From positions 4,021 through 68,020 of the forward strand of contig DATFYE010000027.1 in the NCBI GenBank assembly GCA_035315185.1: a stretch of DNA of 64,000 nucleotides. The letters run 5' to 3'. The notes under the pieces are model-generated. The model was not told the DNA's origin, made no database searches, and worked only from the letters and a program-made list of their open reading frames with translations. The translations under genes and the position numbers were made by a program. This DNA comes from Syntrophorhabdales bacterium. GTDB taxonomy: Bacteria > Desulfobacterota > Syntrophorhabdia > Syntrophorhabdales > WCHB1-27. Numbering within the stretch: position 1 is the stretch's first letter; every line of letters starts with the position of its first letter. Positions 1 through 48,849 of the stretch are shown here, in pieces.

Positions 1-910
1 TCTCTGCGAACTCTGTGGGCTCTGTGTGAGACAAAGTCGTGCCGGGGAAATCGGCGAGGTGGGCTTCTACGGCGCATGCCGCAGCGCCACGGTTGAGATT
101 CGCTTTCAGCAAGAAACAGAGAAACAGGACCTGCGCGAGGACAACAAAAACGCCTACCCATGCGAGTCCGTACTGTCTGATCGAAAAGGTAACGGACAAA
201 TTAAAGAGGAGCACGCCGAAGTAAAGGGAAGGACCGATCACGTAACACCATATGAATCTTCGTCCGTACCAGTCCACTGCTCGCTTCTTTTCCATGAACC
301 TGTCCATGGTCTGAAGCACCCAGATCAGGACGAATCCGACGAGAAACCATCCGACAAAATTGGCTATGGGAACGCCGAAATAGAGGCCGGGTTCCGGGTA
401 CCCGTAAATCTGACCGAGGAACCATCTATCACCCCTCAACGCCACAGGGTCGATGATTACGTCGAGCAATACAAAGAAAAGCGCTCCGAGAAGTCTTGCT
501 TCCCGGGAATATCTGATCTTTTTCGTCTCCAGAAGATAGAGCGTCGGGCCCGTACGCAGAACAGGCGAGGCAGCCGCGAGCGCCATCGAGTAGCTCGCCC
601 ACGCAAGGAACACGAAGCTCATCGAGTCCATGAAGGGAACACCCATGAACCACAGCTCTTTGCCCTTGGTCGTGTCGATGTAGTAATACGATCCGAACGG
701 GATGCCGTTATGGATGGAAGAGAATTCTGAAAGCCATGCAACGAGATAACCGGCGATGGCAAAGAGTAGGGCTCTCTTAACTCCCATGTGCATGGAGCAG
801 CCGAAGAGGTAGGTGAGAAAAAAGAGGACGAAATAGGGCCTCATTAGAATGGTATTGATGATCTGCCAAGGGATCGATTCTGTCCCGGACATCCAGGGCA
901 TCCAGAACAT
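1..910 (-). CDS. Polytopic membrane protein, DUF422/CruF-like (carotenoid 1,2-hydratase family); C-terminus runs off the window
   Basis: The minus-strand frame is open from the ATG at 910-908 to base 1. It is missing from the ORF track because no stop lies in the window. My translation MFWMPWMSGTESIPWQIINTILMRPYFVLFFLTYLF...GYPEPGLYFGVPIANFVGWFLVGFVLIW is multi-TM. The ATG overlaps the hpnH stop (TGATG). The + ORF 26..730 is its antisense shadow. Confidence 0.55.
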   Translation of the reverse strand, partial: MFWMPWMSGTESIPWQIINTILMRPYFVLFFLTYLFGCSMHMGVKRALLFAIAGYLVAWLSEFSSIHNGIPFGSYYYIDTTKGKELWFMGVPFMDSMSFVFLAWASYSMALAAASPVLRTGPTLYLLETKKIRYSREARLLGALFFVLLDVIIDPVALRGDRWFLGQIYGYPEPGLYFGVPIANFVGWFLVGFVLIWVLQTMDRFMEKKRAVDWYGRRFIWCYVIGPSLYFGVLLFNLSVTFSIRQYGLAWVGVFVVLAQVLFLCFLLKANLNRGAAACAVEAHLADFPGTTLSHTEPTEFAE

Positions 911-1917
911 CAACGCGGACACCTGAAGTTCCAGAGGGCAAGCCTGAGGAGGTCGCGCGGATTCGAAAAAGCATTTCTCATGGCCGTGGCTTCAAATCCG
1001 CTGTGTACCATGCAGTTCCGGCACCTCGGATCCTCGCCTGACTCATATTTCTGCCAATCTGTCTTTTTCATCAACTCCTTGAACGACTCGCAGTACGCGT
1101 CCGTTATCAGGTAGCACGGCGATTTCCACCCCAAAGGGTTTCGTGTCGGGTTGCCCCACGGCGTGCAACGCATATGCCTTGTGCCCTGCAGGAAGTCGAT
1201 GTACATGGGCGTGCTCATGAAGGGGTACCTGTCGAATAGATGCTTCATGCGCATGAACTTTTCAGCAGCCTCTTCCCTGGTCAAGAATATGTTCTCCGCT
1301 ACGCTCTGATAGGTGAACGCCGGAGAAATCAGGATGCCGTCTATATTGATACTCGTGAGCAGCGCAAAGAGCTGCTCCAACTCTTCGGTGTCCGCGTATT
1401 TGTAGACGGATGTGTTGGTACAGACCCTGAAACCCTTCTCCTTTGCTTTCCTGATAGCCTCAATAGCTGTTTGGAATGTCCCGCTCCGACCGGCTATACG
1501 GTCGTGCGTCTGCTCCATGCCGTCGAGATGGAAGTTGAGGCTTAGACGTGGGTGCGGGCGAAAATCCTCGACGAGCGACCGTGCCAGAAGGCCATTGGTG
1601 CAAAGATAGACATATCGCTGCATGCGAAGCAGTTTTTCAACAAGTGAACCAACCTGCTCATACAAGAGCGGCTCGCCCCCGGTCACCGTAACCACCGGGG
1701 CGCCTGATTCCCCTGCAGCGTCGACGCACTCGTCCAGGGAAAGGTCGCGCATGTGTGTTTCAGCGTTGAGCCTTATCCTGTCGCAGCCTGCGCAGGCAAG
1801 GTTGCACCGGTGCGTGGGTTCGAGCATCAGTACCAGAGGGAATCTTTTTCCTCCCCTGAGGCTGTTTTTTATAAAGGAAAGTGCAAGCGACTTGTACAGA
1901 CCGGCTGGAAAACGCAT
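910..1917 (-). CDS. hpnH: Adenosylhopane synthase, radical SAM (HpnH)
   Basis: 335 aa. Radical-SAM CxxxCxxC (HRCNLACAGCDR) follows an ...GKRFPLVLMLEPT N-terminus typical of HpnH. It lies in an hpn operon with shc. Confidence 0.88.
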   Translation of the reverse strand: MRFPAGLYKSLALSFIKNSLRGGKRFPLVLMLEPTHRCNLACAGCDRIRLNAETHMRDLSLDECVDAAGESGAPVVTVTGGEPLLYEQVGSLVEKLLRMQRYVYLCTNGLLARSLVEDFRPHPRLSLNFHLDGMEQTHDRIAGRSGTFQTAIEAIRKAKEKGFRVCTNTSVYKYADTEELEQLFALLTSINIDGILISPAFTYQSVAENIFLTREEAAEKFMRMKHLFDRYPFMSTPMYIDFLQGTRHMRCTPWGNPTRNPLGWKSPCYLITDAYCESFKELMKKTDWQKYESGEDPRCRNCMVHSGFEATAMRNAFSNPRDLLRLALWNFRCPR

Positions 1918-1928
1918 AGCAGAACGGG

Positions 1929-2765
1929 CTATGGCACTCGATCAATCATCGATCTTGCCTCTCTTTTCTCGGCAAGAAAGCGCAAAGCCGCATCCAGCTC
2001 CTCAATCGGCAACTGGGTGTTCTTGCATGGACCCTGGGGTCGCCTGTTCGGTATCGCAAGGACCGGTATTCTTTCGGCCACGTCTTTGAGCCCGCTGATC
2101 AAGTCTCTCTCGCATGCAATCGCCAGTATCACGGTTGGCCGGTGCTCCTGTATCGCCTTTCTGGCCTCTTCTCCGCCTGACGCTGTCACGGTCTTTGCCT
2201 CGGTCCCGCCGAGCCTGTCGAGAATCTGGCTCCTCGTGGCCCTTTCCAGGCATCTCGGCAGGAGAACCAGGAGCCTCTCGGCACTGAGACGATCGGGAGA
2301 AGCTTTCAGCACGCTATTGTGCACCTTGATAAAGGAATTGGAGACCCTGTCCCTGCTTATGCCGAACTTCCTTCCCAGCCAGACGCTCTTCGGAAGCAGT
2401 GCAAGCAGGGTCCTCTCCGTCAAGACATAGGGCAGCAATGACTTTCTGAATTTGGCCACGGAAATGGCCTCGGCCGCGACCATCATCAGGATAAGAATTG
2501 AGAATCCCTCGACGCACCATTCCAGCGCGACGGAAACTGCGGGGATAACCTGCTCGATCCTTGGCTTCACCAGATACCAGCCCACATTGAGTAACACAAT
2601 AAGGAAGAAGAATATGACTCCGGCCAGTATGAGAAATGTGGCCGTTGACTCGTTTGCCTCGGTTTCGGCCGGTCCGGCATCGCCTCTCCAATCTGTCCAC
2701 TCGTCTCCCAGCTTCCTGTCTGCAGGCTTGGCCAGGTTGCCCTCTCGGGTATCAGGCATCTGCAC
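1929..2765 (-). CDS. DUF116-family membrane protein embedded in the hopanoid operon
   Basis: 278 aa. N-terminal TM helices, then a C-terminal ...TVILAIACERDLISGLKDVAERIPVLAIPNRRPQGPC region typical of DUF116. It overlaps hpnA by 14 nt. Confidence 0.55.
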   Translation of the reverse strand: MQMPDTREGNLAKPADRKLGDEWTDWRGDAGPAETEANESTATFLILAGVIFFFLIVLLNVGWYLVKPRIEQVIPAVSVALEWCVEGFSILILMMVAAEAISVAKFRKSLLPYVLTERTLLALLPKSVWLGRKFGISRDRVSNSFIKVHNSVLKASPDRLSAERLLVLLPRCLERATRSQILDRLGGTEAKTVTASGGEEARKAIQEHRPTVILAIACERDLISGLKDVAERIPVLAIPNRRPQGPCKNTQLPIEELDAALRFLAEKREARSMIDRVP

Positions 2766-3771
2766 CTCCCGAAAATCGATTCCTCACGTAGCCTCGTTCA
2801 CAATACCAGTTGATCGCCTGTCCCATCGCCCTTTCAACCGAAGCCTGTGGTATCCCCAGACTCTGTACCGCCTTCGAGCAGTCGAAGTACATGTGATTCT
2901 TCGCCATCTTAACACCCGTTAGAGGAATCGTCGGAGCAGCATGTCTGATCCATGTGGAGACAGCCTCATCGACATAAGCAGCCAAGAGTACCGGCACGTA
3001 AGGGAGCTTCACACGCGGAGGCTTACGGTTGCTCATGCGGCCGAGGATGCCTAAAAACTCACCTAGGCTCATATTGCGGTTACCCAGAATGTAGCGTTCG
3101 CCGGGTTTACCGTGCTGTGACGCGAGCCAGTGGCCAAGGCCTACCTCACCGACGTCAACGAAGTTGAGACCTGTATCTATGAATGCCGGCATTCTGCCGT
3201 TGAGAAAGTCTACAATGATTTTTCCCGTCGGCGTTGGTTTTCTGTCCATGGACCCGACCGGTGTAGTGGGATTGACAATGACAACGGGAAGGCCTTTGCT
3301 GACGAATGCCTGCACTTGCTGCTCGGCAAGGAACTTGGACTTCTTGTAGTGACCAACCATGTCAGAGAGATCCACCGGTGTATCCTCGCAACACACAGCG
3401 TTTCGGCTCTTTTTCGGAACCAGGGTCCCTGCTGAACTGGTGTAGACAATCTTCTCCGTGCCTGCTTCCAGCGCCGCCTCCATCACGTTCACGGTGCCCC
3501 GAACGTTTGTCTCATACATAGTCCTGGGGTCCGGTACCCAGAGCCTGTAATCGGCGGCCACATGGTAAAGCTGCGCGCAGCCTTTGAGCGCCCTGCGCAC
3601 TGACTCATAATCCCTGACGTCCCCCGTGACCAGTTCCACAGCAAGCCGTGAAAGGTCAGAAGTATCACTTCCTGCTCTCACCAGTGCGCGGACTTCAACC
3701 CCCTTTTCCTGCAAGGTCTTTGCCACGTGAAATCCCACGAACCCGGTGGCGCCCGTCACGAGAGCTTTCAT
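2752..3771 (-). CDS. hpnA: Hopanoid-associated NAD-dependent sugar epimerase/dehydratase (HpnA)
   Basis: 339 aa. Rossmann motif GATGFVG and extended-SDR architecture. It overlaps shc by 4 nt. Confidence 0.8.
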   Translation of the reverse strand: MKALVTGATGFVGFHVAKTLQEKGVEVRALVRAGSDTSDLSRLAVELVTGDVRDYESVRRALKGCAQLYHVAADYRLWVPDPRTMYETNVRGTVNVMEAALEAGTEKIVYTSSAGTLVPKKSRNAVCCEDTPVDLSDMVGHYKKSKFLAEQQVQAFVSKGLPVVIVNPTTPVGSMDRKPTPTGKIIVDFLNGRMPAFIDTGLNFVDVGEVGLGHWLASQHGKPGERYILGNRNMSLGEFLGILGRMSNRKPPRVKLPYVPVLLAAYVDEAVSTWIRHAAPTIPLTGVKMAKNHMYFDCSKAVQSLGIPQASVERAMGQAINWYCERGYVRNRFSGGADA

Positions 3772-5747
3772 GGTCCGTCTTCCTCAACGGTGAAGCGTGA
3801 TATGAACTTCCCGAGCGCCATGAGCGGGAAGCAGTTTCTGTAATTGTGGTAGTTTATCATGAAGTATCTGGGAAAGCCCGTTGCGGTGAACTCAGGTTCA
3901 TCCCACGTACCATCCGGCTTTTGCCGTTCGAGCAGAAAGGATATGCCTCGTGTCACCTCTTCGCACGCTTCTTCTCCGGCAGCGAGCAAGGCCATGATGA
4001 CCCATGCTGTTTGCGATGGTGTGCTCTTTCCCTGCAATCTCAAGCGCGGGTCTTCGTAGGATTCACAGCATTCTCCCCAGCCGCCGTCTTCGTTTTGGTG
4101 ACGCTTTAGTGTGGCAACCGCCTTCCTCACGTAAGGCGCGTCCATCTCTTCCCCTATTGAGCGAAGACCTTCGAGCACGGACCAGGTCCCGTAACCGTAG
4201 TTCACGCCCCATCTCCCCCACCAGAGACCGTCTTCCTCCTGTGTCTTTTTCAGGAATGCAAGTGCCTGTTGTACCTCGGCATCGTTTGGCCCGTAGCCGA
4301 ACATGCCCAGCAATTCCAGAGCCCTTCCTGTCACGTCAGGGGTACTGGGGTCGAGCATCGCCTGGAGGTCTGCAAAAGGTATCTGGTTGGCGATCTCTTT
4401 ATTATTGTCCGCGTCGAAGGCACTCCAGCCGCCATCTTTTCCCTGCATGCCGAGCACCCAGCGTAATCCCCACTCGAGCTTCTCCGTGCTGACAAGACCG
4501 CTTTTTCTGTAACGGTTCAGGAACATCATGACCACTGCAGTGTCGTCCACATCGGGTTGCCAGTCATTTTCAAACTCAAACGACCATCCGCCCGGCTCCA
4601 GGTTTGGTCTCTTCACGCTCCAGTCACCCTTTCTGAGAATCTGCTTGGAGGAAAGCCATCTGCAGGCTTTTGTCAGTGAGCTGCGATCTTCGTCTACCCC
4701 TGAGTGAAGCAGCGCAAGTGCGGTCAAGGCCGTGTCCCAGACCGGGGATACGCATGATTGAAGCAGAAGCTCATCCTCAGTTTCGATCGTGAACCTCTTG
4801 AGGGCCTCAAAGCCCTTCTGCACGGGTCCATGAGCGGGCCCGTCAACAGCGCCATAGCCCAGGCTGACGAGCGCCAACATCGAATTCACGATTGCAGGCT
4901 GTATGCCCAGCCAGTCACCGCGCTCCTCCTGATGCTCCAGCACCCATGTTTTGGCCATCTGCAGGGCTCGCTTCCTGAAGGGTCTCAAGCCGGTTGCTTC
5001 GACTGCCTTGATCAACTTGTCCAGGATGACAAAAAATCTTTTCCAGGAGAGGAACGGAGTCGGCCCGGTCGTGAGCGATGGCCGACGGTCAAAGGGGTTC
5101 TTGTACAGTTCCCGAATGGCCACATGTTCAGGAAGAGGTTTCACCGGCCTCAGATGGAGGAGTATTGAAAGAGGCACGACTGTACCCCTCGCCCAGGCAG
5201 ACATATTGTAAATGTTAAGGGGCGCCCAGTGGGGAAGAAGCATTATCTCCACAGGCACCGAGGGCACGGCCTGCCAGCCCATCTGGCCAAAGAGGGCGAG
5301 AAAAACTTTTGTGAAAACCCTTGAGCGCTCGACACCACCTTGTGCAAGAATAAATTGCCGCGCTTTTTTCAGAGCAGGGTCTTCGGCTGAGAACCCCGCC
5401 AGTTTTAGCGCGAAATACGCCTCGACCGTGGTGCTCAAGTCGCCCTTTCCACCATAATGTATTGCCCACGTGCCGTCGTCTCTCTGATGGCGCAAAATAT
5501 ACCGTGCGATCCTTCTGTCCCGCTCCTCGTCTTTGATGCCGACGAAGTGAAAGAGCATCAGGTATTCTGCAGTTATGGTTACGTTCGACTCCAGTTCATA
5601 CCACCAATAGCCATCCGGCTGCTGCTCAGCCACATAATAAGCCTGGGTCTTCCTGCAGGCCTGCGCGATCAGGTCGAACAGATCGCTACTGTGGGAAGGA
5701 GATACGCGTTCGCGAGCCGTCGAAGGCCGGATGGGCACTATCTTCAT
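3768..5747 (-). CDS. shc: Squalene-hopene cyclase
   Basis: 659 aa. Catalytic DVDDTA motif and several QW repeats (QRDDGTW, QNEDGGWGE, QKPDGTWDE). Confidence 0.95.
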   Translation of the reverse strand: MKIVPIRPSTARERVSPSHSSDLFDLIAQACRKTQAYYVAEQQPDGYWWYELESNVTITAEYLMLFHFVGIKDEERDRRIARYILRHQRDDGTWAIHYGGKGDLSTTVEAYFALKLAGFSAEDPALKKARQFILAQGGVERSRVFTKVFLALFGQMGWQAVPSVPVEIMLLPHWAPLNIYNMSAWARGTVVPLSILLHLRPVKPLPEHVAIRELYKNPFDRRPSLTTGPTPFLSWKRFFVILDKLIKAVEATGLRPFRKRALQMAKTWVLEHQEERGDWLGIQPAIVNSMLALVSLGYGAVDGPAHGPVQKGFEALKRFTIETEDELLLQSCVSPVWDTALTALALLHSGVDEDRSSLTKACRWLSSKQILRKGDWSVKRPNLEPGGWSFEFENDWQPDVDDTAVVMMFLNRYRKSGLVSTEKLEWGLRWVLGMQGKDGGWSAFDADNNKEIANQIPFADLQAMLDPSTPDVTGRALELLGMFGYGPNDAEVQQALAFLKKTQEEDGLWWGRWGVNYGYGTWSVLEGLRSIGEEMDAPYVRKAVATLKRHQNEDGGWGECCESYEDPRLRLQGKSTPSQTAWVIMALLAAGEEACEEVTRGISFLLERQKPDGTWDEPEFTATGFPRYFMINYHNYRNCFPLMALGKFISRFTVEEDGP

Positions 5748-6649
5748 TTTCTCATCTCCTGGAGGCCTTGCGTGTCGATAGCCCCGAGAAGCTCGCTATA
5801 GCCTGTGCATGCTAAACCAAGTGATGCTGCGGCCTCGCGTATATTCACAGAAATCAACGCTTCGGTTTCCCGCCGACCGGCTTCCGTCGCAAGATCCGGG
5901 TGGGCATAAATCTCATTGGTAACGCCCCTGAGCAAAGGAAGAAGGTCACGAAAATATTTCTCATCGAGCTTCGATGCTCCGCCTTTCCTCGAAAGTCCCA
6001 CGACGTAGGAGGCGGTTTTGAGCCCGTATTCAGACGCTATCTTCAGATTACGGACCGCCAGCATGCGGAACGCAGCCCACTCGGCCAACCTGCGAGCGCC
6101 AATCGACAGGCCGGCGCAGGCGAGTACTGCTAGAGATTCTCTCGGAATTCTTACCCAGGCTACCTGCCTTCTTGCGGCAGCCCTGCAGACGAGTTCGAAG
6201 ATAGCGGGGTGCATGTGCAGGTGATGATGACCATCCACGTGGGTCGGTGAGATTCCTGCCTCCTGGAGGCGATTGAACTGCGCTTCGATCTCTGCCTCGA
6301 TCTCGCACGTGAGCTGTCGCCTCAATCTCCAGTAACGCAACCCCGCACGCAAGGGGCTTTTTACGAACCAGCCCTCCCGGTCGATCAAACCCGGTATGTC
6401 AGAAGGCGCTAAGACCGCCCGGCCATCGCATAACGTAACGTGCAGACCTACGGAAAGTGCGGGACGGACGCGAGCCAACGTGGCTGCCTCTTCGAACGCG
6501 TCACCGCCGGCCATGAGGCTCGCGGCCGTCAAGAATCCCCGGTCAAATGCCCTGGCAACAGCACGGTTCACGAGGCTTGAACGGCCAAGATCATCCGCGA
6601 CGACAACGAGATATCTGTCCCTTCGTTTTAGAGCTGTCCGGTTCATCAT
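5744..6649 (-). CDS. hpnK: Hopanoid biosynthesis protein HpnK (YdjC/ChbG-type deacetylase)
   Basis: 301 aa. YdjC-like VVVADDLGRSSLVNRAV...THVDGHHHLH. It has 4-nt overlaps with hpnJ and shc. Confidence 0.75.
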   Translation of the reverse strand: MMNRTALKRRDRYLVVVADDLGRSSLVNRAVARAFDRGFLTAASLMAGGDAFEEAATLARVRPALSVGLHVTLCDGRAVLAPSDIPGLIDREGWFVKSPLRAGLRYWRLRRQLTCEIEAEIEAQFNRLQEAGISPTHVDGHHHLHMHPAIFELVCRAAARRQVAWVRIPRESLAVLACAGLSIGARRLAEWAAFRMLAVRNLKIASEYGLKTASYVVGLSRKGGASKLDEKYFRDLLPLLRGVTNEIYAHPDLATEAGRRETEALISVNIREAAASLGLACTGYSELLGAIDTQGLQEMRK

Positions 6650-8067
6650 CTGGCTGTCATCTCTTTTCGTTTCGCAAGGAATGAAAAAAACTCTTTCCCT
6701 TCTCGCACCCTTCGACGGAAGAGATCCCTGTCCCGAAGCATCTCACCAAGTATCCTCAACACAGGTCGGGTGCGCAGGTAGAAGGCCCGGTAAAAACGAT
6801 CCACAGCGCAGAACATTTCTTCAGATGATAGATTCCCGTACGAAAGAACGGAATCCTGAATCCCCTCTCGTACGAGCCGATCTCCTTCTTTGACCAGCCA
6901 TCCTTCTTTTTTTGCCTGCTCGTAAAGCTCTGTACCCGGATACGGTGCGGCGAGAGAAACCTGCACGCTATAAGGGTCAATCTCACGAGCAAATCGGATG
7001 GTTTCTTCGATTGTTTGTGCACTCTCACCGGGTAATCCGAGCACAAAGGTCCCGTGTACCAGGATGCCCAACTCCTTGGCAGCTTTGACGAAGGCACGCG
7101 CCTGGTCGAGGCGCACACCTTTTCTGACGTTGTTGAGGATCTTCTGATTACCTGACTCAAATCCCACCACGAGAAGACGCAGCCCGTTCTCCTTAAGTAC
7201 TTTGAGGGTCTCCTTCGGAACCGAGACCCTTGCATTGCACGACCACACGATGCCGAGACGGCCCATAAGTCGCGCTATCTCGAGGATGTGAGGATTGTCT
7301 GTAAAAGTGTCATCGTCAAAGAAATACTCCTTCGCCTGCGGAAACAGACGCTTCGCCCCCTGCATCTCCTCGTAAAGGTTTTGAGGAGTTCGGACCCTGT
7401 AAACGTGCCCTGAGATGGTTTGCGGCCACAAGCAAAAGGTGCAGCGTGACCGGCAGCCTCTGCCCGCGTAAAGAGACACGTAAGGATGCTGCAGATAACC
7501 TATGAAGTAATCTTCAGGCCTGAGGTCCCTCGCGTAAATTTCTGTGACGAAAGGAAGTGCATCTAGGTTCTCAATGAAAGGCCTCGGTGGAGTACGAAGT
7601 ATGTTTCCGTTGGTGCGGTACGCTATCCCATTTACCCTTTCGAGAGGAGTGCCGTGCGCAATTTCGGCCACGGTGTAATCGAATTCGCCGATAGCGACGA
7701 AATCAACAGCTCTGGACTGCCGCAGGGTCTCTTCGGGCAGGACCGTGGGATGTGACCCGACGAACCCTACAAGGAGCTGCGGAAAATGATTCTTTAAGCT
7801 CTCGGCGACTTTGGCATCATTTGCCAGGGTAGGGGTACTGGTGTGAAGGATGATGAGGTCGTAGTCTCCCGCCAGTCGGACGACTTCGTCGAGGCCAATT
7901 CCCTGGGCCGACGCATCGAGCAAACGACTGCGCGCCAGCATTCCCGCTGGATAGGCCAACCATGTGGGATACCAGAATGACCGGATTTCGCGGCGCGCCT
8001 GATAGCGGGCGCCTGCACTACCATCAAATCCGTCAAATGACGGAGGATTCAAAAACAATGTCCGCAC
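6646..8067 (-). CDS. hpnJ: Hopanoid biosynthesis B12-binding radical SAM protein HpnJ
   Basis: 473 aa with a GTG start. The N-terminus RTLFLNPPSFDGFDGSAGARYQARREIRSFWYPTWLAYPAG and the radical-SAM site GRGCRSRCTFCLWP fit HpnJ. Confidence 0.82.
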   Translation of the reverse strand: MRTLFLNPPSFDGFDGSAGARYQARREIRSFWYPTWLAYPAGMLARSRLLDASAQGIGLDEVVRLAGDYDLIILHTSTPTLANDAKVAESLKNHFPQLLVGFVGSHPTVLPEETLRQSRAVDFVAIGEFDYTVAEIAHGTPLERVNGIAYRTNGNILRTPPRPFIENLDALPFVTEIYARDLRPEDYFIGYLQHPYVSLYAGRGCRSRCTFCLWPQTISGHVYRVRTPQNLYEEMQGAKRLFPQAKEYFFDDDTFTDNPHILEIARLMGRLGIVWSCNARVSVPKETLKVLKENGLRLLVVGFESGNQKILNNVRKGVRLDQARAFVKAAKELGILVHGTFVLGLPGESAQTIEETIRFAREIDPYSVQVSLAAPYPGTELYEQAKKEGWLVKEGDRLVREGIQDSVLSYGNLSSEEMFCAVDRFYRAFYLRTRPVLRILGEMLRDRDLFRRRVREGKEFFSFLAKRKEMTAR

Positions 8068-8290
8068 AACGTCCTCTGCTATGTAACTGTGGCCACAAAT
8101 CTTCTAAGGATGAAGAAAGGGACGCGGAAGGCTGCTCCTTTCCATCTATCTATTCTTTACCTTATGGGCAACTTTGTCAAGCCATACCAAAGCGAGAGGA
8201 CGAGAACGGCTCCGCGGGAATTGCGGGTGCGAAGGAATGATAGAGCCGGGACCTCTCGGGCAGGCAACTCGCGCAACTGGCTCAGAAGGC

Positions 8291-8473
8291 TCAGCGCTTT
8301 TTGCTCTTCTTGAGCTCCAGTTCCTGGTTGCAGCATACAAAGCTGCAAGGCCCACATTCGCAAGCGCTCGAGGGCTTGCCGCAGTCAACACACTCTTTCG
8401 TGATGGTGATTTCTATACCACAATCTTTGCAGTAGTAGACATCGCCCTTTTTCATTTCACGGCATTCCGGCAT
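8291..8473 (-). CDS. Small Cys-rich (10 Cys in 60 aa) zinc-ribbon-like metal-binding protein
   Basis: Strong RBS (GAGGAGG 8 nt upstream). CKDC, CVDC, CECGPC and CC motifs. Confidence 0.5.
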   Translation of the reverse strand: MPECREMKKGDVYYCKDCGIEITITKECVDCGKPSSACECGPCSFVCCNQELELKKSKKR

Positions 8474-8647
8474 GATTATTACCTCCTCTCAGTAGACACC
8501 GCATGACGGTATAGTATAATAAGTATCAATAATCAGACTATGGGGATGTGTCAAGGATATACGAATTTTAGATGGCAAATGCGCGGGGAAACCAGGGCAT
8601 AGATCGCACGATGCAATTCTGTCTGCGAGCAGCATGCACGGGGCGAC

Positions 8648-8663
8648 TGGCATGAGAATTGCT
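8648..8663 (+). promoter_or_regulatory. Sigma-54 (-24/-12) promoter candidate upstream of the DsbA-like gene
   Basis: TGGCAT-GAGAA-TTGCT has exact GG-N10-GC spacing. It lies ~125 nt upstream of the start codon. Confidence 0.5.
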
Positions 8664-8785
8664 GGTGCAGCAGAGATATCAGCGCAAGAAGGGGGTGGGA
8701 TGCTTCAAAAGCAGTATAATGGTACTATAATAAGTCTTTAGAATCGGCCGCCTGAGTCGATAACTTGTAGAAATAGAAAGGAGAG

Positions 8786-9646
8786 GTGTGTATGGTGAAA
8801 AAGATGGTCACGTTTGTATTGCCCATCGTTGCGATGGTAGCCTGGGCCTTATTTCCCAATGTGGTCCGGGCCGATGTCGAGTGGAAGGTTCTCAAGAGCC
8901 TCGACCTGAAGGCAGCCCCGCTCGACGTAGCTCCTTCAATGGACGGACAGCGGTTGTTTGTTCTGACAGCAGGAGAGATCCTCGTCTATTCGATTCCCGA
9001 AGGTAAAATAACTGACCACATTCCCGTAGACAAGGAGTTCGACCGCATCGTCGCCGTGCCGAGAGGAGACACGCTTTCCGTCTCAAGCAGCAAGAAAAAA
9101 ATGTTGCAGGTCATCATGCTCGAAAGCATCTACAAGATCGATGTGAGCGGCCTGCCGTTTAAGGGGCCTAAGGACGCTCCTGTCACCATTGCCGTTTATG
9201 ATGATTACCAGTGACCTTACTGTGCGGGGCTTGAGCCCCTCCTCCAGCAGGTGCTGGAGAAATTCCCGAAAGAGGTCAAACTGGTCATCAAACAGTATCC
9301 CCTTCCGATGCACTCTTATGCCAGGAAAGCGGCAATAGCAGCCCTCGCCGCCTGGAAACAGGGAAAGTTCTGGGAAATGCACCACGAGCTATTCGCAAAC
9401 CAGAAGGATCTCAGCGATGCGAAGGTGGAGGAAATCGCGAAGCGTCTCGGCCTGAAAATGGAAAAGTTTAACCAGGATCTCAAGGACCCGGCGATAGCGG
9501 CGGTCATCGACCGGGATACTGCCAGCGCTGCCCAGGCAAGCGTTCAAGGAACACCCACAGTTTTCGTAAATGGGAGACCGCTCCTTCAGCGAAGCCTTCC
9601 CGGATTCCAGCAGGCGATTGAAGCAGAGATGAAGAAAGGAAAATAG
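8786..9646 (+). CDS. Secreted DsbA-family thiol:disulfide oxidoreductase with in-frame TGA (candidate selenocysteine) at the first CxxC position
   Basis: ORFs 8786..9214 and 9251..9646 share a frame and are interrupted only by TGA at 9212-9214. The joined sequence reads VYDDYQ-U-PYCAGLEPLLQQVLEKFPKEVKLVIKQYPL...GKFWEMHHELFANQ...GTPTVFVNG, typical of the DsbA family. A signal peptide is present. The true start is probably ATG 8792. Confidence 0.75.
9226..9257 (+). promoter_or_regulatory. Candidate bacterial SECIS hairpins downstream of UGA 9212
   Basis: GGGGC-TTGA-GCCCC (9226-9239) and CCAGC-AGGT-GCTGG (9244-9257) start 12 and 30 nt after the UGA. Confidence 0.35.
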
Positions 9647-9688
9647 AACAGGGTCAAGGGACAAAGGCTAACGGTCAAGGTGAGACAT
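9647..9688. repeat. Degenerate heptanucleotide tandem array (6 units)
   Basis: AACAGGG TCAAGGG ACAAAGG CTAACGG TCAAGGT GAGACAT. It shares 14 of 15 nt (TCAAGGGACAAAGGC) with the array at 61096-61110. Confidence 0.6.
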
Positions 9689-9718
9689 GCCGAAGGGCCC
9701 CTTTGCGGGCCCTTCGGC
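9689..9718. terminator. Bidirectional hairpin terminator between convergent genes
   Basis: Perfect 12-bp stem GCCGAAGGGCCC / GGGCCCTTCGGC with loop CTTTGC, between the dsbA-like stop (9646) and the AKR stop (9721). Confidence 0.65.
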
Positions 9719-9720
9719 CT

Positions 9721-10770
9721 TCATTTCGCGAGATTGTCGTACCACTCAAGGTTCTTCTTGATTAGCTCAGGGATCGGCAGTTGATAAGGGCAGCGGGACA
9801 TACATTCCCCGCATGCTGAGCAGTTCCTCGCCCTTTCTATCATATCCTTCATCCACTTCAGCTCCTGTACCTGGTTGCCGAACCGCTTGATGGTAGTTTT
9901 CAGCCCTATCAGAAACTGAATGCGAATCTTTTCCGAACAAGGCTGGCAGTAATCGCATCGCCTGCAGAAGACACGGTCGAATTGCTTTCGTATGTCTTCA
10001 ATACGCTCCTTATCGTGCTCGGTGAGGGCGCCGCCTTCCTGGAATATTTTCCAGTTTTCACGGGCCCGTTCCAAAGTCTCGGTGCCCGGAATCGGCACGA
10101 TGTCTTCTTCCCCCAACACGTATCTGAGCGCAGGCCCCGCTTCTTCGATGACCCCGCCCGAGAAGGCCTTCATGGTCAGTATACCGATATCCTTTTTCCG
10201 GGCCGCAGGGAAGACTTTCTTTGCCGCACCCGGTTCCAGGAAACTGTAGCAGGCCATAATGACGTCAAAATGGCCTTCTTCGATGACCCGCTCCAGGAGA
10301 TCGAGGCTGTGGCTGGAGATGGCGATGTGATCGATCAAACCTTCATCTCGTGCACGCTGAAGCCCTTCGTAACCGCCTCCCGGAGCCATGACCTGCTCAT
10401 ACTCTTCATGTTTGGAAATGTTGTGAAGGTGATAGATGTGGACTTTGGCCGCCTGTAACTGTTTAAGGCTTTCACGCACATCATCATAGATCTTCGCTGT
10501 CTTTATCTGTGATTTTGAGGAAAGGATGACGGGTCTATCTACCTCACGCAGCGCCAGCCCGATCTTATGCTCGCTGTCCGTATAGGATCGTGCCGTATCC
10601 AGGAGATCCACTCCCATCTCAAGCACCGCCCTTATAACGGGGACTGCCTCCTGCTCACTGACCCGTTGTATGGGAATCCCACCCCACCCTATCTTTGTTA
10701 CGATCAAATCAGTCCTGCCGAGCCTTACCTTTTCCACACTCGCAACTCCTCTCCTACCAATATCTGGCAT
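9721..10770 (-). CDS. Aldo/keto reductase with C-terminal Fe-S cluster domain
   Basis: 349 aa. AKR core plus C-terminal CRRCDYCQPC and CSACGECMSRCP motifs. Confidence 0.8.
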   Translation of the reverse strand: MPDIGRRGVASVEKVRLGRTDLIVTKIGWGGIPIQRVSEQEAVPVIRAVLEMGVDLLDTARSYTDSEHKIGLALREVDRPVILSSKSQIKTAKIYDDVRESLKQLQAAKVHIYHLHNISKHEEYEQVMAPGGGYEGLQRARDEGLIDHIAISSHSLDLLERVIEEGHFDVIMACYSFLEPGAAKKVFPAARKKDIGILTMKAFSGGVIEEAGPALRYVLGEEDIVPIPGTETLERARENWKIFQEGGALTEHDKERIEDIRKQFDRVFCRRCDYCQPCSEKIRIQFLIGLKTTIKRFGNQVQELKWMKDMIERARNCSACGECMSRCPYQLPIPELIKKNLEWYDNLAK

Positions 10771-22421: not shown

Positions 22422-22778
22422 TCACTGACCGTGCTTCTCGTCGTAGATCTGTCTGCTGACCTTATTCTCCTGCTGATTGAGCGTTCGCTGTTCCTGCTTG
22501 GTGATATGCCCGCCGTTTTGAGATGCCATATCCCGTTCTTCCTGCCGTATCTGCCGGTCCTCTTTGTGCAACTGGCCGGCCTGAGACTTGGTCAAGGTGC
22601 CATTTTTGACGCCCTGGTTAATCCGGCTATTTTGGTTGCCGAGCCGTTTATTGACCTCCGCCCGGCGTGGGTGGTTCTTCTGCCATGCTGTTTCGTCCGC
22701 ATGCACATACGATACCCCCGTGCTCATGATGAACCCAGCCGTAACCACGAGTCCTGCCATTTTCATTAGACCTTTCAT
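22422..22778 (-). CDS. Periplasmic LTXXQ-motif (Spy/CpxP-like) protein
   Basis: 118 aa. Signal peptide, LTKSQ and ITKQEQ motifs, and a Gln/Arg-rich helical sequence. RBS AAGGAGG. Confidence 0.55.
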   Translation of the reverse strand: MKGLMKMAGLVVTAGFIMSTGVSYVHADETAWQKNHPRRAEVNKRLGNQNSRINQGVKNGTLTKSQAGQLHKEDRQIRQEERDMASQNGGHITKQEQRTLNQQENKVSRQIYDEKHGQ

Positions 22779-22852: not shown

Positions 22853-22868
22853 AGCAAAACACATGCCA
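22853..22868 (-). promoter_or_regulatory. Sigma-54 promoter candidate for the LTXXQ gene
   Basis: The minus strand reads TGGCAT-GTGTT-TTGCT with exact GG-N10-GC spacing, ~75 nt upstream of the ATG. Confidence 0.55.
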
Positions 22869-23588: not shown

Positions 23589-23604
23589 TGGCACGGCTAT
23601 TGCT
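23589..23604 (+). promoter_or_regulatory. Sigma-54 promoter candidate for the 96-aa secreted protein gene
   Basis: TGGCAC-GGCTA-TTGCT is a near-consensus match, 70 nt upstream of ATG 23674. Confidence 0.6.
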
Positions 23605-23673: not shown

Positions 23674-23964
23674 ATGAAAAAAGGTATCTGTATGGTGCTG
23701 TTAGGAGTGTTTCTTATGGGCGTGACCGCTCTCGTGGTCAGGACGGTAGGGGCCCAGGGGCCCATTGCGCGGGAGGCCGGCGAGCATCCCAATATAGCTA
23801 AGGCGATCGAGGCCCTCGAAGTAGCTATAGGCGACATGCAGCGGGCACCTCATGATTTTGGAGGACACAAGGCTAAAGCCATTGAGGCGAGCGAGAGGGC
23901 GATCAAACAGCTGAAACTCGCTCTCGCGTACCGGGCCCATGAGGATAGACCCCGTCACCCGTGA
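23674..23964 (+). CDS. Small secreted helical protein, unknown function
   Basis: 96 aa. RBS AAAGGAGG. Signal peptide. Two related helices (IAKAIEALEVAIGDM / KAKAIEASERAIKQL). Confidence 0.55.
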   Translation: MKKGICMVLLGVFLMGVTALVVRTVGAQGPIAREAGEHPNIAKAIEALEVAIGDMQRAPHDFGGHKAKAIEASERAIKQLKLALAYRAHEDRPRHP

Positions 23965-25225: not shown

Positions 25226-25825
25226 CTACTGCTTTTTCCCCTTCTCCCGCACGAACTTCACGTCACTCTTTGCCCCCCACCGCTTGAAGAGCTTCCCGTC
25301 GATAGAAAAAAGGTCGAGGACCTTGCCAATGGTCTGGTCGATCAAGTTGTCGATCGTCTTAGGCATGTGGTAAAAGGCGGGGGCTGGCGGCATGATGACT
25401 CCCCCTATACGCGTGACCTTTGTCATGAGTTCCAGATGACCTTCGTGGAGCGGTGTCTCGCGCACCACGAGCACGAGCCTTCTCCGCTCCTTCAGGGTTA
25501 CGTCCGCTGCCCTGATCAGAAGATTGTAGTTAAACGAATTGGCGACCGCAGAGAGTGTTTTAATTGAGCAGGGTATGACGACCATGCCGTCGGTTTTGTA
25601 TGAACCACTGGCGATGGCCGCTCCGATGTCTTCCACGTCATAAACCGTGTGCGCCAATGCTTCAAGATCAGCCGGAGCATACTCTGTTTCGATGAGTAGA
25701 TTCTTGATCGCGGACTGAGTCACAACGAGGTGCGTTTCCACACTGCATGCGGCCAAAGCCTTCAACATCCGGACGCCGTAGATGACCCCCGTTGCGCCCG
25801 ATATGCCCACTATGATTCTTGTCAA
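25226..25825 (-). CDS. ubiX: Flavin prenyltransferase UbiX (prFMN synthase)
   Basis: 199 aa. The N-terminus RIIVGISGATGVIYGVRMLKAL and overall UbiX/Pad1 pattern fit. It overlaps the upstream UbiD gene by 4 nt. Confidence 0.9.
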   Translation of the reverse strand: MTRIIVGISGATGVIYGVRMLKALAACSVETHLVVTQSAIKNLLIETEYAPADLEALAHTVYDVEDIGAAIASGSYKTDGMVVIPCSIKTLSAVANSFNYNLLIRAADVTLKERRRLVLVVRETPLHEGHLELMTKVTRIGGVIMPPAPAFYHMPKTIDNLIDQTIGKVLDLFSIDGKLFKRWGAKSDVKFVREKGKKQ

Positions 25826-27153
25826 CAGACACCTCCGACGGATTTAAGAATTCGTTCAACGTTCTTACGGCTTCCGGCGGCAACACAGGCCTTCTCCTCG
25901 AACGTCTTCCCCTGCGTCGTCGCATCAATTCCCATCTTGGCTACCCCAAGACCGTGCTCGGCCTGAGGGTCGATAGCTTGCGCGTGCAGGTCAGGTACGA
26001 TCAGAATGTCCCTGTCGGCGAGGCACCTGGTAACCAGAGCCCATTCTACATCCCTGAGATTGTGAAGGTCAACGTCTTCATCCACAATAACTGCTTTCTT
26101 TATCGTCTGAAAGGCGAGTAGTGAGAGCACCAGATTACGTATTCTCGATCTGTGAACCGGCTTTACGGAAAGCACGACTGAGGATCCGAAGGTTTTTTGC
26201 ACGAATGCAATATCGACGATGAATGGGAAGAGCTTTTTCACCGTTTCCTCTATGTGAGCCCGGCTGACGAAGGTGAGATACGTATCCCCTTCGAGGCTTG
26301 TCGGCAAGAGAGCATGATACATCGGCGACGGCTGGTAGGAGAGCCGATTCACCACCATGGTAGGGCTTTCCTTGTTTGTCATGTAGTAGCCGCTGATTTC
26401 ACCAAGAGGCCCGTCCTGTCTCACATCCGTGGGGTCGACATAGCCTTCAAGGTAAATCTCCGCACCTGCCGGCGCGTCGATTGGAGAATCGAAAGATTCG
26501 ATCACCCTGATACCTTTTCCTTTTAGGCCGCCGGCCACTTCAAGCTTATCTGTACCTGGCTGCGCCTTTAGCGCCATCGATAGAAAGAGAATAGGATCGA
26601 CGCCCACCGCCACGGTAACAGGCATCCGCTCCCCTTTGGCCTTGTGCTTCTTGTAAATATCGACCAACGGCGGATTGATGATCGCTATACCTATGCGATC
26701 CTTGCCCCGGTACTCCATCCTGTGGACGCCTCTGCCCACAACGCCCGTATCCGGATCACGGGCCGCGACAATACTTGTGGTTATGAAGGGAGCCGAATCC
26801 TTCTCATAGTGTTTCAGTATCGGTAGAAGCTCCAGGAGGTCTCGTCCTTTAACACTCACGGTTTCCAGTTTTTTTTCGACCCGCACCTTTTTGGCCCTTT
26901 TTTTGAGGCTTTCAAGAAAGAACTGATACGGGTTATCCGTGTCGAAGAGAAGGCGAAAGATCTCGTGCGACGGGACGAGGTTCGCAACAAGGGAGCAGGT
27001 GTATCCCTTGAGGTTCTTGAAGAGCAGTACTTTCTTTGTGTCGGAGAGTCTCTCGATCAATTCGGGAATGTCTTCCCGGGTGACCTGATCCTGGATTTCA
27101 AGGAGCAGGCCACGCTTCTTCACAAAAGTAATGTAATCGCGCAGAGAGTCCAT
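25822..27153 (-). CDS. UbiD-family (prFMN-dependent) carboxylase subunit, phenylphosphate-carboxylase alpha/beta-like
   Basis: 443 aa UbiD fold. It sits in a UbiD-small-UbiD arrangement followed by ubiX. Confidence 0.8.
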   Translation of the reverse strand: MDSLRDYITFVKKRGLLLEIQDQVTREDIPELIERLSDTKKVLLFKNLKGYTCSLVANLVPSHEIFRLLFDTDNPYQFFLESLKKRAKKVRVEKKLETVSVKGRDLLELLPILKHYEKDSAPFITTSIVAARDPDTGVVGRGVHRMEYRGKDRIGIAIINPPLVDIYKKHKAKGERMPVTVAVGVDPILFLSMALKAQPGTDKLEVAGGLKGKGIRVIESFDSPIDAPAGAEIYLEGYVDPTDVRQDGPLGEISGYYMTNKESPTMVVNRLSYQPSPMYHALLPTSLEGDTYLTFVSRAHIEETVKKLFPFIVDIAFVQKTFGSSVVLSVKPVHRSRIRNLVLSLLAFQTIKKAVIVDEDVDLHNLRDVEWALVTRCLADRDILIVPDLHAQAIDPQAEHGLGVAKMGIDATTQGKTFEEKACVAAGSRKNVERILKSVGGVC

Positions 27154-27156
27154 AGT

Positions 27157-27411
27157 TCACATCCCTTTCGGTATAACATCGACGATTTCCAGTATCTGCA
27201 TCGAACAAGGGGTCTCTATGAGCTGCCCCCTCCCGAGCCTCAACCAGAGCCTTTCAGGATACTTCTCCGGATCAAGAGATATCTTGATCTTCGCGTGCGT
27301 TGACCGATACTTCTTTCTGCCCGGAGAGAGGTCCCGTATTACAGCCACCCACTCCTCACCCTCTCGTAAGTCACCAAAGTTTTTCTGTATAAACGTGTCC
27401 CAGACCGGCAT
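27157..27411 (-). CDS. 84-aa protein in the position and size of a phenylphosphate carboxylase gamma subunit (PpcC-like)
   Basis: It is wedged between two UbiD genes with 3- and 9-nt spacers and is ~10 kDa. The call rests on context and size only. Confidence 0.4.
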   Translation of the reverse strand: MPVWDTFIQKNFGDLREGEEWVAVIRDLSPGRKKYRSTHAKIKISLDPEKYPERLWLRLGRGQLIETPCSMQILEIVDVIPKGM

Positions 27412-27420
27412 GAAGACCTC

Positions 27421-28866: not shown

Positions 28867-29112
28867 CCGTTACCTCCTAGTATCGGTTCGTCTTCAGGTG
28901 CATAGCTTCGTTGTCGCTGCGTCACTCTCCTCCTGCCACCCGTGTGGACTTGTCTGTGCCCGTTGGAAAGACGGTGCTCACGGGTACCCGGCGAAAACAA
29001 TCCTCGCTGCCGCCTCGCTCTCCATCCTGAATACGAGCCGCTACTTACGTGTAAGCAATAGCACGATTGGTCGTAAGCATTCTGAGGCATGAGCCTACGT
29101 CATCATTAATCG

Positions 29113-47670: not shown

Positions 47671-47913
47671 ATGGATAGCGACAAAAAGGTTCTGGTTTAC
47701 TCAACGCCTACCTGACCGCACTGCAAGAGGGCGAAAAAGTTCCTCGAGGAGAATGGTATCTCCTTTCAAGATATAGACGTTGCGGCAGACAAAGCAGCCC
47801 GGGAAGAGATGGCACGAAAAGCAGGCCAGATAGTGGTTCCCGTTTTTGACATCGATGGAACAATCATAGTGGGCTACGTTGAGAGCCAGTTGAAGGAAGC
47901 TCTAGGGCTCTAG
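47671..47913 (+). CDS. Glutaredoxin/NrdH-like redoxin, 80 aa, with in-frame TGA (candidate selenocysteine) at the first active-site position (U-P-H-C)
   Basis: It is not in the ORF track because both halves are shorter than 60 aa. My translation is MDSDKKVLVYSTPT-U-PHCKRAKKFLEENGISFQDIDVAADKAAREEMARKAGQIVVPVFDIDGTIIVGYVESQLKEALGL. RBS GGGGGTG. TGA is at 47713-15. A TrxR-like gene follows 24 nt downstream. Confidence 0.7.
47747..47764 (+). promoter_or_regulatory. Candidate SECIS apical hairpin
   Basis: AGGAGA-ATGGTA-TCTCCT starts 32 nt after the UGA and has a GGU-containing loop. Confidence 0.3.
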
Positions 47914-47937: not shown

Positions 47938-48849
47938 ATGCATGATGTGGTCATCATTGGCGCCGGTCCTGCCGGCATGACAGCAGCGGTCTACTGCGCG
48001 CGGAAGAAGCTCAGCACGCTCCTCGTCAGCAAGGACGTTGGCGGCCAAACGCTCTGGACAAACGACATAGAAAATTACATGGGGTACCAGTTCATCGAAG
48101 GGCCGGAACTCGTTGAAAAGTTCGAGCAACAGGTACGCCAATTTCCCATCGACGTGAAGATAGAAGAGGACGTGGTCGGCCTGACCAAGGTGGATGGTGG
48201 TTTCGAAGTGCTTACCGCGAGTGGCTGGACTTACCGGGCAAAGGCGGCGATTATAGCCAGTGGCAAACGGCCCCGGTCGCTCGGCGTCCCTGGGGAAGAA
48301 CGCTTGCGGGGGCGCGGTGTGACGTATTGTGCTACCTGCGACGGCCCCTTGTACGAGGGACTAAAGGTGGCAGTGATCGGGGGTGGTAATTCAGCCGCGG
48401 AAGCGGTCTTGGATATGCTGAAGATTGCGGCGCATGTGTACATGGTCTCCTTAACACCGTTGACCTGCGATCAGCTGCTCGTCGAGAGGTTCAAGGAAAA
48501 CCCGACGCTCACTGTTTACGCGGAACATGTAACACAAGAGGTACTGGGAGACCCCTCGGTGTCAGGTATCCGCATCAAAGACCTCAAGTCTGGCGAAGAG
48601 AGGATTTTGGAAGTCAGGGGGGTCTTTGTTGAGATCGGGCTGGTCCCGAATTCAGATTTTGTAAAGGAACTGGTCAAGCTGAACGGGCCTGGCGAGATAG
48701 AGGTTAGTTGTGCCGGTGAGACCGCAGTTCCGGGCCTGTTCGCAGCCGGCGACGTCACGAATGTTCCCGAGAAACAGATTGTTGTGGCCGCCGGCGAGGG
48801 AGCAAAGGCGGCCCTTCAGGCCCACCGTTTTCTTCAAAGGCTTACATGA
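47938..48849 (+). CDS. Thioredoxin-reductase-like FAD/NAD(P)H disulfide oxidoreductase
   Basis: 303 aa. VVIIGAGPAGMTAA, redox-active CATCDG, and a second Rossmann motif VIGGGNSAAE. Confidence 0.85.
   Translation: MHDVVIIGAGPAGMTAAVYCARKKLSTLLVSKDVGGQTLWTNDIENYMGYQFIEGPELVEKFEQQVRQFPIDVKIEEDVVGLTKVDGGFEVLTASGWTYRAKAAIIASGKRPRSLGVPGEERLRGRGVTYCATCDGPLYEGLKVAVIGGGNSAAEAVLDMLKIAAHVYMVSLTPLTCDQLLVERFKENPTLTVYAEHVTQEVLGDPSVSGIRIKDLKSGEERILEVRGVFVEIGLVPNSDFVKELVKLNGPGEIEVSCAGETAVPGLFAAGDVTNVPEKQIVVAAGEGAKAALQAHRFLQRLT

Follow-up and report, generated by a model that had tools for sequence, protein, structure and literature searches.

Does an in-frame TGA at the active site of a DsbA-like gene mark a broken gene, or is it a codon for selenocysteine (Sec)? 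The question is raised by a locus in a 64,000-nucleotide stretch of contig DATFYE010000027.1 from a Syntrophorhabdales bacterium (Desulfobacterota), the whole of which is called the window here. Two open reading frames (ORFs) on the forward strand, 8786..9214 and 9251..9646, lie in a common frame with TGA 9212-9214 as the sole intervening stop. The original prediction had read them as one gene interrupted only by this codon, and the reading frame bears this out together with the junction given, ...APVTIAVYDDYQ-*-PYCAGLEPLLQQVLEKFPKEVKL..., in which the residues ahead of the TGA are IAVYDDYQ. Downstream of the TGA, 143 codons follow without a frameshift or a further stop. The comparisons described below support 8792..9646 as one intact gene for an exported DsbA-type enzyme in which Sec would replace the first active-site Cys, and it is very probably a functional selenoprotein gene with its selenocysteine insertion sequence (SECIS) element at 9242-9259. 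The central features are as follows:

8792..9646 (+), predicted complete selenoprotein gene, precursor of a DsbA/Thioredoxin_4-family thiol:disulfide oxidoreductase; 284 codons plus a TAG stop, with the TGA as Sec141
8779..8786 (+), Shine-Dalgarno-like AGGAGAGG, seen in the sequence 5' of ATG 8792; the equivalent at the orthologous locus L035 is GGAGG
9212..9214 (+), putative UGA selenocysteine codon (U141), at the nucleophilic first Cys position of CxxC; relatives have TGA or TGC/TGT in the identical column
9221..9223 (+), TGT codon of the resolving Cys144 in the motif U-P-Y-C; an invariant column

The frame had been taken to open at 8786. The frame itself stands, and ATG 8792, with AGGAGAGG upstream of it, is the likely start codon rather than GTG 8786, which makes the Sec residue 141.

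The TGA did not arise from an error of assembly. From 8501 to 9760 the window sequence, with its TGA, recurs unchanged in two independent assemblies, one in ENA (58.8-kb contig) and one from JGI (13.9-kb contig), and one contig of a Logan-assembled soil run equals window 8400-9800 with zero differences; where TGC or TGT might have been found at 9212, all three have TGA. Contigs of related strains from soil, wetland and peat metagenomes and metatranscriptomes also run across the TGA, and among the differences listed none falls within 9197-9275, while the flanks vary at many sites; this is supportive only. In both public assemblies of the window sequence the gene is called as two pieces, one of 140 aa and one of 112 or 131 aa with the DSBA domain, which is the splitting by gene callers that had been predicted.

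The depth of these contigs is an observation in its own right. In several metagenome and metatranscriptome runs it is maximal just over the stretch 9199-9292, which holds the TGA and the SECIS candidate (for example, 33x versus 6x in run X3, and 113x in RNA run X27). Co-occurring strains with differing flanks have these k-mers in common, which fits a constraint at the nucleotide level.

What do relatives carry at this codon? Searching 5.8 billion proteins brought up 1629 homologs, and residue classes were counted in the best 120 of them. At the Sec column, 55 of these 120 have CxxC, 46 are written with Trp (W), and 19 are longer two-domain proteins, also with Cys. The Trp is a product of gene calling, since in all five W proteins with contig DNA examined (loci L001-L003, L084 and L085) the codon is TGA, and translation with the standard code gives a protein other than the database entry; the gene callers adopted genetic code 4 (Mycoplasma-type) on short metagenomic contigs. 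This artefact is systematic, and it hides selenoproteins as full-length “WxxC” proteins.

In a genome scan with one genome per species, TGA is present at the Sec codon in 29 loci. The window's own Desulfobacterota-type clade, with proteins of ~285 aa and the same architecture, accounts for 25 of them, and the other 4 encode more distant proteins from Myxococcota, a Pyrinomonadaceae (Acidobacteriota) metagenome-assembled genome (MAG) and another deltaproteobacterial MAG. TGA forms of the clade include L035, an 84%-identical ortholog (MAG MFD06435.bin.1.188), and the isolates Desulfopila sp. IMCC35006 and Desulfobacterota bacterium M19. Another 13 clade relatives have TGC or TGT at the Sec codon, and Sec and Cys forms are interleaved in a neighbour-joining tree, indicating repeated interconversion. 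The ratio of nonsynonymous to synonymous substitution rates (dN/dS) against L035 and L001 is 0.04–0.14 upstream of the TGA and 0.00–0.13 downstream, with dS near 1 in the flanks; the low values on both sides indicate that both halves are translated and under purifying selection. The in-frame UGA is aligned with the Cys of homologs, then, and the ORF is conserved on both sides. The alignment proposed in the original prediction gave Cys or TGA at precisely the Sec column, and relatives with the TGA, instead of showing a decayed downstream sequence, keep an intact and selected frame.

The RNA downstream of the codon was examined for a SECIS element. The segment 9205-9285 (81 nt) folds with z = -4.4 versus dinucleotide shuffles, and two hairpins follow the UGA:

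9226..9239 (+), hairpin 1, GGGGC/UUGA/GCCCC; -10.1 kcal/mol; begins 11 nt after the UGA; candidate accessory or spacer element
9242..9259 (+), hairpin 2, CUCCAGC/AGGU/GCUGGAG; 7-bp stem, loop 9249-9252, -11.3 kcal/mol; best SECIS candidate

The first had been predicted exactly at 9226-9239, while the second, placed at 9244-9257, extends one to two pairs beyond those limits. An outer stem joining the UGA region to 9272-9285 in the minimum free energy (MFE) fold was dropped, as it is not conserved in relatives.

From the TGA onward, 66 nt can be aligned without gaps across 25 Sec and 13 Cys forms of one protein, which makes an unusually clean comparative definition of a SECIS element. In the 25 Sec forms, all 150 cells of the 6-bp core of hairpin 2 (9243-9248 with 9253-9258) are paired, the loop always reads AG[G/U]U, and two-sided changes are found in 5 of the 7 pairs. 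The clearest covariation is C-G versus G-C (15 versus 10 sequences), where a Gln/Glu codon change in the 5' arm is offset by a synonymous Leu CUG/CUC change in the 3' arm. In the 13 Cys forms, the same columns are ~40% paired, no better than shifted registers, and the peptides are similar. Third-codon-position entropy over codons +10..+15 is 0.53 bit in Sec forms versus 1.44 bit in Cys forms, and 1.44–1.56 bit in the neighbouring codons of the Sec forms.

Some hairpin is also formed in the region of hairpin 1 in all 25 Sec forms, with a mean of -8.8 kcal/mol versus -3.1 kcal/mol in Cys forms (p = 2e-6); Sec forms likewise exceed Cys forms in stability over the region of hairpin 2 (p = 3e-7), and control regions show no difference. 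The register, loop size and sequence of hairpin 1 vary among lineages, with 59% of cells paired at a fixed register, and its synonymous sites are unconstrained (third-codon-position entropy about 1.4–1.8 bit).

The bacterial SECIS (bSECIS) model asks for a loop of 3–9 nt, a stem of 4–16 bp and an MFE of at most -7.5 kcal/mol, with a G at loop position 1 or 2, as a rule with G or U after it, and a spacing of 16–37 nt between UGA and loop (PMC13188914). Hairpin 2 agrees with the model in every respect (loop AGGU with G at position 2 and then G, 7 bp, 34 nt from UGA to loop, -11.3 kcal/mol), while hairpin 1, with its UUGA loop, lacks a G at loop position 1 or 2. SelB binding is therefore assigned to hairpin 2, and hairpin 1 is probably an accessory or spacer element. 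Of the two hairpins that had been placed at SECIS-compatible distances, the second has the SECIS signature in its sequence.

The more distant Sec forms differ in this region. Those of Myxococcota and Acidobacteriota have a single hairpin of 6–8 bp with a GGUC loop at +21..+24, a spacing like that of fdhF. In these sequences the recoded codon is common to several phyla and the cis-element is lineage-specific. They come from distant DsbA-like paralogs with TGA at the same catalytic codon in Myxococcota and Pyrinomonadaceae MAGs (L042 6751, L058 6091 and L064 1563).

Which protein would be produced by reading through the UGA? In addition to the active site, it has three features:

8792..8872 (+), predicted Sec-type (secretory) signal peptide MVKKMVTFVLPIVAMVAWALFPNVVRA (residues 1-27), read from the sequence, with cleavage after VRA and no lipobox
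8915..9121 (+), N-terminal all-beta domain, residues ~42-110, seven strands in structure models (predicted local distance difference test, pLDDT, about 90–96)
9551..9556 (+), thioredoxin-fold loop Thr254-cisPro255, GTP motif; P255 invariant, G253 and T254 at least 90% conserved

We infer from the signal peptide that the product is exported, and homolog structure models place an N-terminal helix at residues 2-19. With U changed to C, the joined protein matches Pfam Thioredoxin_4 (PF13462; 2.8e-27, 96.4 bits, cutoff 23.2) and DSBA (PF01323; 4.8e-23, 82.4 bits, cutoff 25.6), both over residues 124-277. The active site consists of U141-P-Y-C144 and G253-T254-P255, in which C144 and P255 are invariant across homologs. 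These matches, with Cys or TGA in homologs at the U, agree with the DsbA/thioredoxin-fold active site originally proposed, with U at the first Cys.

The AlphaFold model of a natural Cys homolog (P0002, 65% identical; pLDDT 92.4) has a DsbA-family fold: seven beta strands (~45-110) come first, and the thioredoxin fold after them carries a helical insertion. Its catalytic domain superposes best on B. subtilis BdbD, 3gyk, Wolbachia alpha-DsbA2, Corynebacterium DsbA/TsdA and ScsC (Proteus, Salmonella, Caulobacter), with a target-normalised template modelling (TM) score of 0.77–0.84 for the closest superpositions (BdbD, 3gyk, ScsC and alpha-DsbA2). A sequence search of solved structures gave the same relatives as closest (E = 1e-15 to 1e-12). 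On these models, the catalytic domain appears nearest to the BdbD / ScsC / alpha-DsbA2 branch of the DsbA family. In this branch, additional N-terminal domains produce oligomeric isomerases or reductases, and together with the anaerobic deltaproteobacterial background this suggests by analogy a role as periplasmic disulfide reductase or isomerase rather than classical DsbA oxidase. Ahead of residue 124 there is no Pfam match, and the N-terminal beta domain has no Pfam family. The window's N-terminal fragment, modelled with its homolog alignment (pLDDT 87), gives a weak match (E about 1e-3) to two blades of WD40/YVTN beta-propellers, and such a partial propeller might oligomerise.

The following course of events is proposed. 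When the ribosome reaches the UGA at 9212-9214, the hairpin ~30 nt downstream (9242-9259) would remain folded outside the mRNA entry channel and would recruit SelB-GTP-Sec-tRNA(Sec), so that Sec is inserted and translation runs 143 codons more. Hairpin 1 (9226-9239), which is selected in UGA-bearing genes, probably acts as accessory or spacer. The precursor would then be exported by its N-terminal signal peptide, and once in the periplasm the enzyme would exchange disulfides with substrate proteins as its Sec-Cys pair goes back and forth between selenol/thiol and selenenylsulfide. By analogy with the trimeric ScsC and alpha-DsbA2, the enzyme may be a periplasmic oligomeric disulfide reductase or isomerase.

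Could the gene be explained without Sec? If the TGA were a nonsense mutation and the locus a disabled DsbA-like gene of the usual CxxC type, this would agree with the numerous close homologs with Cys at the Sec codon and with the two fragments given by standard callers. However, the same TGA recurs in 29 loci of several phyla, dN/dS after the TGA is as low as before it over 143 codons without stops or frameshifts, the compensatory hairpin is found only in TGA forms, and related genes are transcribed; with no decayed downstream frame in TGA-bearing relatives, a pseudogene is effectively refuted. Two separate products, a 140-aa exported beta-domain protein ending at the UGA and a C-terminal protein starting from GTG 9251, are also highly improbable. 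Bacterial Sec insertion is inefficient, so a truncated N-terminal by-product is probably made, and an in-frame GTG does exist at 9251, but this GTG lies inside the conserved hairpin 2 without its own ribosome-binding site. A protein started there would be without the UxxC, the first thioredoxin-fold strands and the signal peptide, and all Cys-form homologs are single fused proteins of ~285 aa. Decoding of the UGA as Trp, Gly or Cys, by reassigned or near-cognate reading, has hardly any probability. The Trp in the database translations of 46 of the 120 top homologs seems to speak for it, but this Trp is the choice of genetic code 4 on short contigs with TGA in the DNA. Moreover, TGA is the most frequent ordinary stop in the window (23 of 50 genes), indicating that the code is not reassigned; the codon is at the catalytic Cys position, where only Sec or Cys keeps function, and alternates with Cys only; and the SECIS-type hairpin is specific to TGA forms.

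The remaining alternative keeps Sec decoding and changes the element: hairpin 1 would be the SelB-binding SECIS, or the two hairpins would act together as a bipartite element in which hairpin 1 is an indispensable spacer. Hairpin 1 begins exactly 11 nt after the UGA, its region has a hairpin far more stable than in Cys forms in all 25 Sec forms, pairing is kept although stem sequences differ widely between lineages, and the single GGUC-loop hairpin of Myxococcota and Acidobacteriota Sec forms is at the position of hairpin 1. On the other side, hairpin 1 varies in register and loop and its synonymous sites are free, whereas in hairpin 2 the loop never varies and synonymous change is constrained. 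We regard this alternative as unlikely, though it deserves more weight than those without Sec.

Several findings weigh against Sec insertion directed by hairpin 2. Its 34-nt spacing is close to the upper limit of the consensus model (37), and hairpin 1 sits at the E. coli-like 11-nt position, so that either hairpin may be the one that binds SelB. Rfam gave nothing relevant for the whole window at gathering thresholds or for 9100-9400 at E <= 10, its coverage of such SECIS elements being unchecked. In 60 ORFs of the window, Pfam and NCBIfam scans gave no selA, selB or selD; the flanking sequence retrieved for relatives has none of them either, and ARAGORN found no tRNA-Sec in the 64-kb window and 24 related loci. 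The neighbourhood also gives no functional clue, with hopanoid genes in the window's clade and housekeeping genes in Desulfobulbales.

Is the organism able to insert Sec at all? Deltaproteobacteria include many selenoprotein-rich species (PMC1794560), and we infer Sec competence only from this taxonomic group and from the candidate selenoprotein genes. A second candidate lies in the window, followed by a possible partner:

47671..47913 (+), second UxxC gene, glutaredoxin-like YruB family; TGA 47713-47715 at the first Cys of CPHC
47938..48849 (+), thioredoxin-reductase/AhpF (C-terminal)-like flavoprotein gene, 24 nt after the second UxxC gene

The second UxxC protein matches Pfam Glutaredoxin (9.7e-19) and TIGR02196 (88.9 bits versus a cutoff of 88.55), and downstream of its TGA there is a hairpin with GGU in the loop at +42..+44, a spacing similar to that of the DsbA-like gene. 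From their arrangement, the two genes are likely a pair of Sec-glutaredoxin and reductase. Almost all glutaredoxin-like homologs have Cys, with TGA only in the window's own gene and one other, a count biased by the short N-terminal stretches before the TGA, which hinder detection of TGA forms. The gene at 47713, cited in the original prediction against a random nonsense mutation in the DsbA-like gene, is thus real, but it lends less support than was assumed. A list of in-frame TGAs across the window gave no further convincing selenoprotein candidates.

A broader view of the locus combines the RNA and the protein. It holds that a bipartite SECIS outside the single-hairpin model, with a lineage-specific long-range SelB geometry, and a ring-forming propeller-like domain together make a multimeric seleno-isomerase. 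The sequence-variable spacer hairpin, folded at the ribosome entrance, would present the invariant SelB-binding GC-AGGU-GC hairpin, whose loop would otherwise be too far off (34 nt), and the two-blade propeller-like N-terminal domain would assemble several subunits into a ring. The GGU loop of the second UxxC gene is similarly distant (+42), so SelB of these Desulfobacterota could be suited, as a lineage-specific trait, to such long-range geometry. We consider this combination doubtful, and prefer the gene with hairpin 2 as its SECIS.

How the gene is transcribed was considered from its flanks:

8648..8663 (+), sigma-54-type -24/-12 motif TGGCATGAGAATTGCT (TGGCAT-N5-TTGCT, GG-N10-GC spacing), ~130 nt upstream of ATG 8792
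8704..8731 (+), candidate sigma-70-like promoter, TTCAAA-16 nt-TATAAT, matching at 10 of 12 positions; alternative or additional
9689..9718 (+), intrinsic-terminator-like GC-rich hairpin, 12 bp, between the gene and a convergent aldo/keto reductase gene
9721..10770 (-), aldo/keto reductase gene, convergent

The motif TGGCATGAGAATTGCT is one mismatch from TGGCAC-N5-TTGCW and has the -24/-12 sequence. It is kept upstream of the orthologs L035 (TGGCATCGTATTTGCT) and L002 (TGGCAAGAGAATTGCA) amid diverged surroundings, and is absent upstream in L001 and more distant relatives. Sigma-54-type matches number 6 in the window versus 1.96 expected, and 3 of the 6 are intergenic, correctly oriented and upstream of genes for exported proteins: 8648-8663, 22853-22868 (-) and 23589-23604 (+). 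No Sigma54_activat domain was found among the 60 window ORFs by Pfam and NCBIfam scans. The -10 block of the sigma-70-like candidate lies within a stretch nearly identical in L035. The sigma-54 promoter that had been said to drive the gene is plausible, with about even chances judged from the sequence; the motif is real and kept in L035 and L002, and a conserved sigma-70-like promoter adjoins it. The strong terminator-like hairpin at 9689-9718 makes the gene look monocistronic.

A 23-nt direct repeat, TA[G/C]TATAATAAGT.T..A.AATC, at 8512-8534 and 8723-8745 (+), 211 nt apart, brackets the sigma-54 motif. Its 10-mer core TATAATAAGT is confined to those two sites across the 64 kb (0.02 expected). 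A -35-like hexamer lies 16 nt upstream of each copy, and L035 has a recognisable counterpart of both; the copies could be tandem sigma-70 promoters or operator sites. The motifs at 22853-22868 (-) and 23589-23604 (+), one a perfect match, lie ~70–75 nt 5' of small ORFs with signal-peptide-like N-termini, 22422-22778 (-; 118 aa) and 23674-23964 (+; 96 aa), in a region (22.8–25.2 kb) otherwise without long ORFs. This arrangement suggests sigma-54 control of small exported proteins in the source organism.

Around the gene, a redox partner (DsbB, VKOR, DsbD, CcdA or ScsB) was sought in the synteny of 33 related loci, and none was found. Neighbours in Desulfobulbales are PhoH, YbeY-PdxJ and trigger factor, and the window's clade has no conserved neighbour. 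Directly upstream, at 910-8067 (-), is a hopanoid biosynthesis cluster with genes for radical SAM/DUF3463 (HpnH-like), DUF116, NAD-dependent epimerase, squalene-hopene cyclase, YdjC-like and B12-binding radical SAM proteins; on the public contig it extends past the window start with squalene/phytoene synthase-type and PNP_UDP_1 genes. Divergent from the DsbA-like gene is a 60-aa Cys-rich ORF, 8291-8473 (-), with 10 Cys, several CxxC pairs and no signal peptide, which is 78% identical in L035 (5523-5729, -) and has no Pfam or NCBIfam family. Public calls over it give an 89-aa ORF on the opposite strand, 8240-8506 (+), probably wrongly. Farther away, 25226-31674 and 52189-53646 (-) contain four UbiD-family decarboxylase paralogs, a UbiX-like flavoprotein gene and HAD hydrolases, with genes nearby for a LysR regulator, a tripartite ATP-independent periplasmic (TRAP) transporter (DctPQM, three DctP copies), LarA-like and PorAB-type 2-oxoacid:ferredoxin oxidoreductase proteins; the region looks like an island for anaerobic degradation of aromatics or organic acids.

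Is a protein of this kind already known? DsbA-like UxxC (COG2761/PF01323) and DsbG-like UxxC (COG1651) selenoproteins were predicted in 2005–2006 by comparative genomics (PMC1088965, PMC1794560). A DsbA-like selenoprotein family from the Sargasso Sea was defined on COG2761 (Zhang et al. 2005, PMC1088965), and Zhang et al. 2006 (PMC1794560) list Desulfovibrio desulfuricans and Anaeromyxobacter dehalogenans as having DsbA-like selenoproteins. A 2026 review regards both the DsbA-like and DsbG-like selenoproteins as “predicted with high confidence”, with no DsbA-like one functionally characterised (PMC13188914). The family is therefore not new, as the original prediction had said. The window protein shares with the published DsbA-like selenoproteins (representative NIP15863.1), as they are described, the PF01323 domain, Sec first in UxxC, widespread Cys homologs and an occurrence in Deltaproteobacteria, and since it matches PF01323 and PF13462 above their cutoffs, it appears from its sequence to fall within “DsbA-like form 1” as PMC13188914 defines it. 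It differs from the COG2761 DsbA-like family in matching PF13462 best, in its signal peptide and in a further beta domain of ~90 aa at the N-terminus. The most fitting description is that of a member, or an unmodelled subfamily, among the DsbA-like UxxC selenoproteins; the protein kind and the mechanism are already known.

What is added is a subfamily of exported selenoenzymes, well supported and widespread, with members in soil, peat and sediment. The subfamily has no NCBIfam selenoprotein model; a dedicated protein model or SECIS covariance model would mend annotations and improve selenoproteome counts of Desulfobacterota. Its Sec/Cys pairs and cultured TGA-bearing isolates are a natural system for studying the contribution of selenium to a periplasmic disulfide enzyme in anaerobes.

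The best NCBIfam match is NF041057 (E = 2.6e-19, residues 117-278), the DsbG-like “Rcas_1661 family thioredoxin-like (seleno)lipoprotein” of COG1651, and its 69.7 bits are well below the curated cutoff of 190. UxxC, an exported thioredoxin-like domain and CPYC-type active-site residues are shared, whereas the window protein lacks a lipobox and the model leaves out its N-terminal domain; it is a relative and not a member of that family.

Among enzymes of known structure, PmScsC, CcScsC and alpha-DsbA2 have a DsbA fold with N-terminal oligomerisation modules and are trimeric disulfide isomerases (PMC5524982, PMC8900818, PMC6450060). BdbD, ScsC and alpha-DsbA2 are Cys enzymes, whereas the window protein would have Sec and has an N-terminal beta domain. 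In enzymes of this type the N-terminal modules are helical stalks. The window protein is not a typical ScsC, as its N-terminal domain is all-beta and not a helical stalk, and no scsB/scsD or DsbD-type neighbours were found in the window and 33 related loci. A partner gene of bdbC type or scsABD type is not seen near the window gene either.

At the RNA level, the gene resembles the bacterial SECIS prototype (bSECISearch; E. coli fdhF) in having a stem-loop directly 3' of the UGA inside the coding sequence. The GC-AGGU of hairpin 2 is similar to the apical GC-AGGUC of fdhF, with its G23/U24, and the loop of hairpin 2 lies ~16 nt farther from the UGA than that of fdhF. Unlike in fdhF, a second selected hairpin occupies the gap in the window gene.

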